Translations under genes and position numbers: made by a program
Notes under the pieces: model-generated
The model's input: only the letters and a program-made list of their open reading frames with translations
Database searches by the model: none
What the model was told of the DNA's origin: nothing
Sequence record: PZ445440.1
DNA: 64,000 nt
Origin: a phage
Reading direction: 5' to 3' (one strand)
In this document: one piece after another, positions 12,791 through 24,992 of the stretch
Position numbering within the stretch: the first letter of the stretch is position 1
Layout: every line of letters starts with the position of its first letter

Positions 12791-13050
12791 TTAAAATATT
12801 CTCGTAGTTGGTCAAATCCACCAATGTGACTTCCATCAGGAGCAAACACTTGAGGCATAGTCAATCCGACTTGTGATTCACGTCCAAGCTTAACCAGAAG
12901 CTCAGCAATTTTCTCATCATCAAAAACACCTTTTTCTGGCATAACATTAATGAATTCGAACGGCTGTTTCTTAACAGTCAGCAATCGTTTCGCATTATCA
13001 CAATAAATGCATTTATGAATAGTAGAGTCATACCCGTACACTTTAAACAT
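12787..13050 (-). CDS. nrdC: thioredoxin/glutaredoxin NrdC
   Basis: MFKVYGYDSTIHKCIYCDNAKRLL... near-identical to recalled T4 NrdC; start at ATG 13050 with AAGGAAAA upstream (track start 13065 over-extended). Confidence 0.9.
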   Translation of the reverse strand: MFKVYGYDSTIHKCIYCDNAKRLLTVKKQPFEFINVMPEKGVFDDEKIAELLVKLGRESQVGLTMPQVFAPDGSHIGGFDQLREYFK

Positions 13051-13456
13051 TATTTTTCCTTTCATCGATTAAATATGCAATGCCAAATACAATACATGTA
13101 ATAAAACCTGTGATACAGATAGAAACCAACAACACCGTACCAAAGAACCAAATCAAGTTATCTTTAGTAGTTTGTTTGATATCCATCTCACGAATTTCTA
13201 TAGCTATCGTATCACCTTTATTCAGAAGCGTATAAAACGACGGTGATACACGCCTGTCAAAAACTCGTCCTTGTTCATCTTTATAAACTGCAATAAATTC
13301 TAATTTAGAATATTTTCCTGTAGATTGGCCTGAGATTAATTCCACTACCTCCACAGGAATTACTTTAGTTTCCATGTAAGTATTCTGGCTGTTCCAAATG
13401 AATGGAATGATGGCAAAAACTAAAGCTGCAATAAAACAACGAAGGCTATATCTCAT
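13043..13456 (-). CDS. membrane protein (two predicted TM helices)
   Basis: ORF track; N- and C-terminal hydrophobic segments. Confidence 0.65.
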   Translation of the reverse strand: MRYSLRCFIAALVFAIIPFIWNSQNTYMETKVIPVEVVELISGQSTGKYSKLEFIAVYKDEQGRVFDRRVSPSFYTLLNKGDTIAIEIREMDIKQTTKDNLIWFFGTVLLVSICITGFITCIVFGIAYLIDERKNNV

Positions 13457-22942: not shown

Positions 22943-23125
22943 TTATAGTGAATTCACGTAGTCAATGAGTTCTTGTTCTTTCCTGTCAAATGATTCCAAC
23001 AATGCTTGATATTCTTCATCTGTTAAAGGAGCATATTCATCATACGCATTGGTGGCCGCTTGCTCATCCAATAGGTCGTGGATAAGTTCGAACAGTTTAG
23101 TTTTCTCTTCTTTAGTCAATTTCAT
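22943..23125 (-). CDS. small acidic hypothetical protein (60 aa)
   Basis: ORF track; ATG start. Confidence 0.6.
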   Translation of the reverse strand: MKLTKEEKTKLFELIHDLLDEQAATNAYDEYAPLTDEEYQALLESFDRKEQELIDYVNSL

Positions 23126-23586
23126 TTAGGTTCCCAATCAACAATCACAATTTCTAGTTTAGTGGAATACGTATCTAAAATCTCTTCGATGACATCCCAG
23201 TTTCCACCACCAATACCTGCACCAATTCTTGGCATATAAATTACAGGCTTTGTTATCTTATTCTTTCCGAATTCATTTAATTCTATTATACAATTCATTA
23301 AAGCATAGTACTCAAAATTAGGTCCAGGCTCAAACTGTGTATAAAGATTAAAGCAATAAGCTTTATGGGTCTTAAAATATTTTTCATAAACCGAATAAGT
23401 CCCGAGTTTAGACTCGTCTCCGAATTCGGTTTGAAGTTTATCGGCTTCCAGAATTTTTGGATAAGCCTTTGCTAATTGTCCTGCTACACCGGCACCCATT
23501 GTATGAAAACAATTACACCCATGAGCAATATTATTACCTTTAGAAAACAGGGCGACAATATCGCCCTTGATATAGTTTTTAATCAC
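23122..23586 (-). CDS. macro-domain protein (ADP-ribose binding/processing fold)
   Basis: ORF track 23122..23616 begins with TTG; probable GTG start 23586 with AGAGGA upstream; GDIV...AHGCNCFHTMGAGVAGQ and IGAGIGGG glycine-rich motifs. Confidence 0.7.
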   Translation of the reverse strand: MIKNYIKGDIVALFSKGNNIAHGCNCFHTMGAGVAGQLAKAYPKILEADKLQTEFGDESKLGTYSVYEKYFKTHKAYCFNLYTQFEPGPNFEYYALMNCIIELNEFGKNKITKPVIYMPRIGAGIGGGNWDVIEEILDTYSTKLEIVIVDWEPK

Positions 23587-23926
23587 TTGCTGCAAGTCCT
23601 CTAGTATAAGAGTCAACTAGACGGTCCACCATAGAATTGCATGCTGCCTTATCTTTAGGTTCCGCCACCGAGCATTCTAATATTTGCCATTTTTTATGAT
23701 ATCGTTTAATTAAGGTAGACGCCTTGAACCTACTAGACGCCCCATCTTTTTCTCCGTCTTTATATGCGTATAACAATTTTTGTGAAAAATCTACTTTACA
23801 CTCTTGACTTTTACCACAATAATCAGACGCCGTTCTGTTTGTATACTCCGTTACATCAGTATATGTAGTATTAGCAAGAGCGTTAAATGAAACCAAGCCA
23901 ACTATTAAAGCCAACATTTTGGTCAT
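23579..23926 (-). CDS. secreted/periplasmic protein with N-terminal signal peptide (115 aa)
   Basis: MTKMLALIVGLVSFNALA signal-like N-terminus; four cysteines; ATGA overlap with next gene. Confidence 0.65.
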   Translation of the reverse strand: MTKMLALIVGLVSFNALANTTYTDVTEYTNRTASDYCGKSQECKVDFSQKLLYAYKDGEKDGASSRFKASTLIKRYHKKWQILECSVAEPKDKAACNSMVDRLVDSYTRGLAASD

Positions 23927-24465
23927 TCTTTTATTTCCAGTAGTTTATTTGATTTAAGGTAATTAGCCTTTTCTAGGACTTCAGAAGCATATTTACTTCC
24001 AGCACTTGTCTTCCATCCAGCATTATATGAGGATATAGCTTTTCTTATATCCCCGTTATGTATATTTAACCAATAAGAAAATTCGATATAAGCCCATCTG
24101 GCTGAATTAGACCGCTTAGATAGCATTTTCTTAATTTGGGCATCAGTCATATTATAACCAAGCTGGTTAATTCTTGCCCTCATTGTTGGTAGATAATTTT
24201 GGAACATTCCATACGCATGGTGACCTTTCTTATCTTTAAGATTAATACCGGCAGATGATTCCTGCCATAGTATTGCGGCCATTATGTATCCAAGTCCTTT
24301 CTTATGCATATTTTCATGCGTTTTAAATTTTCCGTCCTTAGAAAACTGTTCCCCAAACTGATAAGCATAATTCAAGTTATCGAGTTGGACATTACTAAAA
24401 GTATGCTCGGAGCTATGTGCTGATAATGAAAGAGCAAATAGACCAGCGAGTAGTGCTTTTCTCAT
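23923..24465 (-). CDS. periplasmic lytic transglycosylase-like protein (SLT domain, signal peptide)
   Basis: Signal peptide MRKALLAGLFALSLSA; catalytic-region motif ILWQESSAG...AYGMFQ. Confidence 0.7.
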   Translation of the reverse strand: MRKALLAGLFALSLSAHSSEHTFSNVQLDNLNYAYQFGEQFSKDGKFKTHENMHKKGLGYIMAAILWQESSAGINLKDKKGHHAYGMFQNYLPTMRARINQLGYNMTDAQIKKMLSKRSNSARWAYIEFSYWLNIHNGDIRKAISSYNAGWKTSAGSKYASEVLEKANYLKSNKLLEIKE

Positions 24466-24473
24466 GTTTACCT

Positions 24474-24932
24474 CTAGATTTTAATCACTGCTTTAGAAGC
24501 TTTTCCTGGTAGTCGTTTACTGTTAATAATAGCCATTCTGCATTGAAGAGTCTTCATTTTGAATGCTGGATTTTCGCGACAAACTGTAAGTCCTAACCAA
24601 AGATTTCCATCGGTTATTTCTAAACGGCCTGGACGGTATTCGACGCCTTCGACAAAATCTTCATCAACGTCCGGACGAGCCGGCATTGATAAAAATTCTG
24701 CAACTTCTTTAACATGATTTTTTACTTTATGAAATAATTCAAAAACGTAATTCTCATCTATTTCTCTCTGGATGGCACGATCTAAGAGATGCTGAGAATA
24801 CTTGATATGAAAGCCTGGTAGTCCAAGAGACTTTGCAGCATCTTTTATACCGGCATTTATTTTGCGGAACTCCGTTTCAAAGATTCGACGGAGTTTATTA
24901 CGGCGGATAAAAACTTCCGAATTGATAGTCAT
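24474..24932 (-). CDS. regB: endoribonuclease RegB
   Basis: ORF track 24474..24956; ATG 24932 (MTINSEVFIRRNKLRR...) near-identical to recalled T4 RegB. Confidence 0.9.
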   Translation of the reverse strand: MTINSEVFIRRNKLRRIFETEFRKINAGIKDAAKSLGLPGFHIKYSQHLLDRAIQREIDENYVFELFHKVKNHVKEVAEFLSMPARPDVDEDFVEGVEYRPGRLEITDGNLWLGLTVCRENPAFKMKTLQCRMAIINSKRLPGKASKAVIKI

Positions 24933-24939
24933 TTTGATT

Positions 24940-24992
24940 TCTCCTCTAGTTGACAAGTCTATAGTAACACAACTAGAGGAGAAGTAAACTAC
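24940..24992 (-). promoter_or_regulatory. early promoter for regB (GTTTAC-17-TACTAT) inside 12-bp inverted repeat that includes the regB SD
   Basis: CTCCTCTAGTTG ... CAACTAGAGGAG arms read in sequence. Confidence 0.5.

Follow-up and report, generated by a model that had tools for sequence, protein, structure and literature searches.

The pair of small genes lying between regB and tk.4 in T4-type phages raises the question of where its products work, since both carry a predicted export signal while one of them is catalogued as a modifier of a cytoplasmic host enzyme, the valyl-tRNA synthetase (ValRS). The pair is examined here in the sequence record PZ445440.1, a stretch of 64,000 nucleotides of phage DNA (hereafter the window), of which the 2 kb tested are 100% identical to Escherichia phage ChristianSchoenbein (Bas46, Mosigvirus, MZ501056.1). 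The reading favoured in this work, to which a probability of about one in two is assigned, is that the Mosigvirus vs.1-vs pair encodes a co-exported, envelope-acting transglycosylase and its partner, which would exert a limited conditioning of the cell wall. The two open reading frames (ORFs) proposed by an initial annotation, made from the sequence alone, were both found on the minus strand, and are arranged as follows:

24465..23923, minus strand: ORF of the vs.1 orthologue, 180 amino acids (aa), predicted exported lytic transglycosylase of the GH23/SLT type
23926..23579, minus strand: ORF of the vs orthologue, 115 aa, predicted to be an exported protein of four helices in which four cysteines are conserved
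23923..23926, minus strand: ATGA overlap in the sequence, combining the stop of vs.1 and the start of vs

The gene order regB - vs.1 - vs - tk.4 - tk is common to T4 and the window, and the amino-acid identity to the T4 orthologues amounts to 83% for Vs.1 and 67% for Vs. On this basis, the pair corresponds to the Mosigvirus orthologues of T4 vs.1 (UniProt P13311) and vs (P13310), a point that the initial annotation missed, along with the published SLT similarity and the conflicting ValRS modifier label of the small ORF. In the GenBank record MZ501056.1, vs.1 is labelled 'hypothetical protein' and vs 'ValS tRNA-synthetase modifier'. In the same line, the vs.1 product is assigned to phrog_600 (3.7e-67), whose function is unassigned in PHROGs, and the vs product to phrog_1256, valyl tRNA synthetase modifier (1.8e-35); neither protein was matched in NCBIfam. 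In terms of transcription, the SLT-like vs.1 comes first and the 115-aa vs second, so that the attribution of the SLT signature to the 'second' ORF holds in plus-strand order but is reversed in transcription order.

Vs.1, a predicted enzyme of the GH23/SLT type

The Pfam SLT domain (PF01464) is the sole family match of Vs.1. It is matched by 41 of the 44 Vs.1 homologues at E <= 0.01, with a best E value of 1.3e-7, and several homologues bear a precomputed PF01464 assignment. The SLT assignment suggested at first is thereby recovered at the level of the family, but the copy in the window scores 18.8 bits (E = 0.0013), under the gathering cut-off of 21.3. The alignment of these 44 homologues was used to judge conservation, and three motifs emerge from it:

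24253..24264, minus strand: motif I, Q-E69-S-S, with the predicted catalytic glutamate; E69 and S71 invariant (n=44)
24196..24210, minus strand: motif II, G86-M-F-Q89-N90; G86, Q89 and N90 invariant (n=44)
24016..24030, minus strand: motif III, S-Y147-N148-A-G150 (AYNAG-type); Y147, N148 and G150 invariant (n=44)

The ES...GMFQ signature on which the initial annotation relied is found as E69-S70 and G86-M-F-Q89, and three of its residues, E69, G86 and Q89, are among the invariant ones. Y159 is invariant as well, and further invariant columns, Q27, N30, A34, G38, E128 and W132, are specific to the family. The AlphaFold2 model of Vs.1 is confident (pLDDT 90.6, pTM 0.83) and has a lysozyme-like GH23 fold in which E69 occupies the end of helix 59-70. 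Vs.1 thereby combines the features of the family-1 lytic transglycosylases, namely motif I with its E-S pair at a helix end, motif II and motif III, and the assignment of its fold to the GH23/SLT type is solid. A profile search of the PDB sequences with the Vs.1 alignment gave no significant match, the best ones being chance metacaspases, with a g-type lysozyme at E = 0.61. The mature protein is calculated to comprise 162 aa, with a mass of 18.7 kDa and a pI of 9.6. With its export signal described below, Vs.1 is in all likelihood an exported GH23 enzyme.

As regards the reaction, the set of ES, GxxQ and AYNAG-like motifs is the signature of the family-1 lytic transglycosylases. As judged from the alignment, this motif pattern favours a transglycosylase rather than a hydrolase, and so does the fact that no Asp is conserved behind the catalytic Glu. 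Vs.1 could otherwise be a hydrolase, either a goose-type lysozyme or a GH23 chitinase-like muramidase, or a catalytically weak peptidoglycan-binding module. Such an identity appears improbable in view of the motif set, of SLT being the only family matched and of position 78, which varies where g-type lysozymes have their conserved Asp after the catalytic Glu.

The SLT similarity itself was published in 2003 and 2006, and the gene pair and the core of the SLT finding were therefore already known: Nolan et al. reported a marginal SLT similarity of vs.1 for six phages in 2006 (PMC1524935), and their paper credits the 2003 review of the T4 genome for it. Several GenBank records already label vs.1 homologues 'transglycosylase SLT domain-containing protein'. 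Others have drifted towards the neighbouring gene, with vs.1 orthologues labelled 'endoribonuclease', 'predicted endoribonuclease RegB motif' or 'putative RegB endoribonuclease'. What the present analysis adds is the conflict between export and annotation in the Vs family, and the fitness signature shared by vs and vs.1 in published data.

Compared to the family-1 transglycosylases E. coli Slt70, MltC and MltE and P. aeruginosa Slt, MltF and MltD, to which it is only 14-18% identical, Vs.1 consists of the bare domain, 162 residues long, and has an N-terminal helix peculiar to its family (holding the invariant Q27, N30, A34 and G38), but no lipid anchor and no superhelical or LysM modules; moreover, it is encoded by a phage that produces it early in infection. 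It also differs from phiKZ gp144, phi6 P5, T7 gp16 and lambda R, which are virion-borne or holin-released and have no Sec signal, whereas Vs.1 is a non-structural early product with a signal peptide, non-essential in T4. If the proposed role is true, T4, the reference virulent phage, would possess, next to gp5 and gpe, a third enzyme that cleaves peptidoglycan, and this one would be secreted early in infection.

Export signals and the annotation of Vs

Signal peptides were called by explicit rules: a K/R and no D/E, then an uncharged hydrophobic stretch of 10-22 residues starting within the first 8 residues, and small residues at positions -3 and -1. Both proteins of the pair satisfy them:

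24412..24465, minus strand: signal peptide of Vs.1, aa 1-18, MRKALLAGLFALSLSAHS, with predicted cleavage after AHS (rule-based)
23873..23926, minus strand: signal peptide of Vs, aa 1-18, MTKMLALIVGLVSFNALA, with an A-L-A cleavage site (rule-based)

More precisely, the three parts of the signal are MRK, ALLAGLFALSLSA and A-H-S in Vs.1, followed by SEH, and MTK, MLALIVGLVSF and A-L-A in Vs, followed by NTT. Only 4 of the 108 crude genes of the 64-kb window pass the rules, namely those of Vs.1, Vs and rI and one unassigned ORF. The three-part signal, of the Sec type cleaved by signal peptidase I (SPase I) according to the same rules, is kept in 44/44 Vs.1 and 51/51 Vs homologues, although individual residues drift, and the median length of the hydrophobic h-region is ~14 residues across both sets. 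The signal-peptide-like N-termini attributed to the two proteins by the initial annotation have therefore withstood this examination. A signal-anchor-release (SAR) domain was also considered for Vs.1 and is unlikely, as the h-region of ~13-15 residues is too short to span the membrane and a small-residue cleavage site is present. Besides, Vs.1 is not a lipoprotein and has no lipid anchor, since it contains no Cys. For Vs, a strict lipobox (LSGC, LLGC, LVGC or LVSC) is found in 6 of the 51 homologues and LFGC in 2 more. In the CC31-like phages, a lipoprotein signal replaces the ordinary Vs signal, which makes sense only for an exported protein. Export of Vs is thus regarded as very probable.

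The Vs family is narrow and restricted to phages. A single-sequence HMMER search of 1.84 billion cluster representatives retrieved 7 matches and a word-based search 4, while a profile built from hand-collected phage copies of Vs retrieved 55, all of them with PF26829. Precomputed assignments to this family exist for all Vs homologues and for the cluster representative P0001, which is 99% identical; Vs had no match in the Pfam copy searched, which does not contain the PF26829 model. Across phages of Escherichia, Acinetobacter, Klebsiella, Pantoea and others, Vs identity is 23-30%, and the only strongly conserved positions of the mature protein are the four cysteines, G58 and a C-terminal L-x3-Y-x2-G-L motif. 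The cysteines are located as follows:

23639..23818, minus strand: four Vs cysteines, C37 (23816-23818), C43 (23798-23800), C85 (23672-23674) and C96 (23639-23641), present in all full-length homologues

In the AlphaFold2 model of Vs (pLDDT 85.8), helices 15-37, 41-64, 69-85 and 90-113 form a four-helix bundle in which the cysteine pairs flank the turns between helices 1 and 2 and between helices 3 and 4. Because both hairpin turns are flanked in this manner, the model makes two disulfides likely. The four-helix bundle gave no informative structural match, and no fold similarity to the inhibitors Spackle, Ivy, PliC/MliC and PliG was found among the matches listed. The mature protein is calculated at ~11.0 kDa with a pI of 8.4, and T4 Vs at 11.05 kDa once mature compared to 13.06 kDa for the precursor.

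This picture has to be confronted with the name that the protein bears. The gene vs is said to have been defined genetically, in work by Neidhardt, McClain and Marchin between 1966 and 1980, through what it did in vivo to a temperature-sensitive valS host; the vs factor was reportedly estimated at ~10 kDa in the literature of that period. Vs has since been stated to bind the host ValRS (PMC8076793, as well as the preprint 10.1101/2025.11.20.689424), and GenBank records and PHROGs carry the modifier label; by sequence, Vs does belong to the Vs family (phrog_1256; PF26829). These elements, together with the minimal-medium defect of vs knockouts described below, which fits a role in amino-acid supply or translation, are in line with Vs being a cytoplasmic tau factor that binds and stabilises the host ValRS and is unrelated to Vs.1, their adjacency reflecting the tight packing of early genes. 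The hydrophobic N-terminus of Vs would then be unused for export, or would export only part of the protein. Nevertheless, the predicted location of Vs is not the cytoplasm, where ValRS binding would occur. A canonical signal peptide is present in 51/51 homologues and stays constant despite the 23-30% identity across the family, and the lipoprotein signal of a subgroup (LSGC, LLGC, LVGC) would tether the protein outside the cytoplasm. In addition, the layout of the four conserved cysteines in helical hairpins suggests disulfides, which form in the periplasm, and Vs has no internal Met from which a cytoplasmic short form could start. A Vs acting solely on ValRS in the cytoplasm is consequently considered unlikely. 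The insolubility of N-terminally His-tagged T4 Vs expressed in the cytoplasm (PMC8076793) fits, weakly, a secretory disulfide protein.

As predicted from sequence, an export signal that is sometimes of the lipoprotein type appears hard to reconcile with a cytoplasmic target. Possible ways out of the conflict are a wrong assignment of the ORF, a part of Vs that stays inside the cell, or a wrong export prediction. No paper found raises this conflict, in a literature search conducted mostly without subscription journals. The most far-reaching proposal is that the 'valyl-tRNA synthetase modifier' ORF encodes a periplasmic, disulfide-bonded and, in some phages, lipid-anchored protein working with the secreted Vs.1, which remains doubtful when taken as a whole. 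If true, either the classical vs/tau function has been pinned on the wrong ORF, or the association with ValRS is due to a fraction of Vs that is not exported, or comes about only once cells are broken, and the minimal-medium defect of T4 vs mutants would be an envelope phenotype rather than one of translation. Hundreds of genomes carry the label 'valyl-tRNA synthetase modifier', or the corruption of it to 'valyl-tRNA synthetase', and fitness data are now being interpreted by means of it. Resolving the conflict would lead either to the correction of an assignment made forty years ago or to an unusual protein with a dual location. As an example of this drift, vs is labelled in GenBank as 'valyl-tRNA synthetase', that is, the enzyme itself, and PMC10698182 discusses it as a phage-encoded synthetase.

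Linkage, fitness and a possible common role

The association of the two genes was evaluated in 70 IMG/VR loci encoding a Vs.1 relative, in which Vs was sought by a local hidden Markov model (HMM) search. Relative to the vs.1 stop, Vs starts at -8 to +7 nt in 55/70 loci and 141 nt away in 1 more, and it is encoded 0.47-1.2 kb downstream on the same strand in 8/70; overall, 64/70 loci have it within 1.3 kb on the same strand, and 6/70 have no Vs homologue within 3 kb of vs.1. In the control comparison, regB immediately precedes vs.1 in 53/70 loci, and tk.4 immediately follows vs in only 28/70. The vs.1-vs pair is therefore a stable unit, yet its stability does not greatly exceed that of regB-vs.1. 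The pair is kept in Acinetobacter phage PhT2, where both flanks, regB and tk.4, are replaced. The overlap between the two genes, 4 nt (ATGA) in the window compared to 8 nt in T4, is present as initially described at 23923-23926. It was rejected as a sign of special coupling, since 10 of 25 neighbouring genes' junctions overlap within the annotated 10 kb that surround it, 5 of them by exactly 4 nt: it is ordinary T4-type gene packing.

Fitness data for T4 are available from the supplement of the HIDEN-SEQ preprint 10.1101/2025.11.20.689424. On LB plates neither gene is essential, 30/32 TA sites being occupied in vs and 46/52 in vs.1 (10.1101/2025.11.20.689424). After competition in LB liquid, the mean insertion counts are 26.6 for vs and 22.6 for vs.1, against 178.6 for regB, 289.6 for tk.4 and 652 for vs.3 (10.1101/2025.11.20.689424, supplementary file 7, Data S8), so that insertions in the two genes are under-represented ~10-fold relative to flanking non-essential genes already in this control. 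When M9 is compared to LB, vs is the most depleted gene (log2FC -2.19, adjusted p about 0), vs.1 shows a log2FC of -0.87 (p = 0.0055, adjusted 0.155) and the flanking genes are unchanged (10.1101/2025.11.20.689424); the passages searched in the main text of the preprint discuss the M9 defect of vs only and do not mention vs.1. That vs and vs.1 matter for fitness whereas their neighbours do not fits a shared role.

The same data bear on another possible relation, namely that Vs would be a co-secreted antidote inhibiting Vs.1, a dangerous muramidase, and keeping wall damage in check until lysis. The logic would be that of T4 Spackle with the gp5 lysozyme, or of the type VI effector-immunity pairs. 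Co-export with tight translational coupling in 55/70 loci is in its favour, and vs insertions are worse than vs.1 insertions in M9 (-2.19 compared to -0.87), as expected if loss of the antidote harms most. However, insertions in the two genes are equally under-represented in LB (26.6 and 22.6), which is no antidote signature, vs.1 insertions are costly in themselves, and many phages have vs.1 without vs. Besides, the Vs fold is unlike Spackle, Ivy, PliC/MliC and PliG among the matches listed, and the charge complementarity that was looked for between Vs and Vs.1 is absent, both being basic. An antidote function of Vs thus seems improbable. In the type VI pair Tse3-Tsi3, the order and the purpose differ, and Vs has no fold match to immunity proteins. 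Like T4 Spackle, the gp5 lysozyme inhibitor, and RI, the antiholin, which PMC7677548, PMC7650644 and PMC8385771 describe as small early periplasmic proteins with cleavable signal peptides, Vs and Vs.1 are small, early and predicted to be exported; unlike Spackle, Vs shows no detectable similarity to it in sequence or fold in the searches run.

As to the time of expression, T4 vs and vs.1 are both classed as 'early RNA / middle protein' (PMC9697503 supplement), and in the window the pair belongs to the prereplicative regB-tk cluster. The placement of the pair in the early region next to regB was hence correct, and since the cluster is prereplicative and the T4 orthologues are early RNA / middle protein, the pair is not the endolysin, in agreement with the initial annotation. 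The additional statement that it does not lie with the lysis genes is half true: the regB-tk cluster is its location, but rI lies 1.5 kb downstream.

In the co-exported transglycosylase and partner reading, Vs.1 would be made in the prereplicative period and exported via Sec by means of its cleavable signal peptide. Once in the periplasm, it would act as a small soluble GH23/family-1 lytic transglycosylase cutting the glycan strands of the sacculus through Glu69. Vs would be translated off the vs.1 mRNA through tight stop/start coupling and exported too, as a ~11 kDa four-helix bundle stapled by two disulfides, or as a lipoprotein in some relatives, and would work in the envelope rather than in the cytoplasm, as a partner or regulator of Vs.1. 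The net effect would be to condition the cell wall in a limited and non-lytic way, to the benefit of phage fitness, most visibly in minimal medium. That Vs and Vs.1 cooperate is a tentative part of this scheme, held as somewhat less probable than the opposite. Candidate purposes are to prepare the wall for enlargement of the cell or for efficient lysis, to release muropeptides, or to take part in exclusion. The superinfection exclusion, lysis timing and injection support evoked in the initial annotation are guesses, none of which is favoured over another by the findings.

Several points weigh against this scheme, in addition to the sub-threshold SLT score of the window copy and the PDB search mentioned above. 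The annotation of Vs from the experimental era ties it to the cytoplasmic ValRS, and the genetics as reportedly performed indicate an in-vivo cytoplasmic effect. The literature search retrieved no enzymatic, localisation or interaction data for Vs.1 or Vs, and the two mature proteins are both basic (pI 9.6 and 8.4). The linkage could be plain synteny, given that vs.1-vs adjacency (55/70) is similar to regB-vs.1 adjacency (53/70) and that 4-nt overlaps are common; the frequency of overlapping junctions and of regB-vs.1 adjacency is likewise what a Vs confined to ValRS and merely packed beside vs.1 would predict. In addition, signal-peptide-bearing vs.1 homologues occur without an adjacent vs in Kuttervirus, Felixounavirus and Aeromonas phage CC2. 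Finally, insertions in vs.1 could be depleted because of polarity on vs, and partial polarity would account, under a purely cytoplasmic Vs, for the weaker phenotype of the vs.1 insertions. In terms of literature, neither T4 Vs.1 nor T4 Vs is biochemically characterised as periplasmic in the publications that could be searched.

Neighbouring genes and related loci

The genes flanking the pair in the window are the following:

24474..24932, minus strand: regB endoribonuclease gene, directly upstream of vs.1 (Pfam REGB_T4 4.9e-69, annotation)
23122-23586, minus strand: tk.4 macro-domain gene, directly after vs (Pfam Macro 3.4e-6; phrog_335)

The regB stop and the vs.1 ATG are 8 nt apart, and vs.1 and vs are therefore probably on the regB transcript. 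A weak promoter resembling the T4 early ones, GTTTACT-16 nt-TACTAT, is present upstream of regB (24941-24989, minus strand), and the Shine-Dalgarno region of regB contains GGAG, which is the motif cleaved by RegB itself in T4. On the other side, the annotated GTG start of tk.4 overlaps the final 8 nt of vs, and an 8-bp stem-loop with 5 G-C pairs, AGGGCGATATTGTCGCCCT then GTTTTCTAAA, is found at 23549-23567 (minus strand), 12 nt past the vs stop, within the 5' part of tk.4. At the end of a regB-vs.1-vs unit, it might act as a partial terminator or stabilise the RNA. In the scan for promoters and terminators, nothing exceeded shuffled expectation, the number of stem-loop sites in the region included. 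The T4 orthologue of tk.4 is named AdfM, an anti-DarT factor removing ADP-ribose from DNA, in the HIDEN-SEQ preprint (10.1101/2025.11.20.689424).

Relatives of vs.1 are also found in other genomic contexts. In Felixounavirus DE7 (L010:1408-1956), a vs.1 homologue with a signal peptide directly follows rIIA-rIIB, and in Kuttervirus S118 one follows a gp46-like recombination nuclease; on the basis of these two cases, secreted GH23 enzymes are widespread in unrelated large virulent phages. Since secreted vs.1-like genes thus extend beyond the T4 family, to Kuttervirus and Felixounavirus, the function of vs.1 is probably common among large virulent phages that infect Gram-negative bacteria.

In CC31, Klebsiella phage 5N and Acinetobacter phage PhT2 (L006:2315-2734, L007:2309-2701 and L003:2282-2707, respectively), a third ORF with a signal peptide overlaps the end of vs, which makes a three-gene secreted cluster including vs.1-vs. 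This third ORF, absent from the window, encodes 130-141 aa, the mature part opening with WEKLPGYP or WEQITPS; in CC31 it is assigned to phrog_4957. The Aeromonas-type phages without Vs (L068, L069, L070 and L079) have an exported ORF of 140-146 aa that immediately precedes the tk.4 homologue and lies ~0.3-1.4 kb downstream of vs.1, with a lipobox IYGC or MYGC in 3/4 and an ordinary signal peptide in the fourth; the L070 copy is assigned to phrog_9490. Elsewhere in the window, a 137-aa ORF (13043-13456, minus strand; phrog_2547) passes the signal-peptide rules, with an N-terminus starting with MRYSLRCFIAALVFAIIPFIW that is signal-peptide- or membrane-anchor-like.

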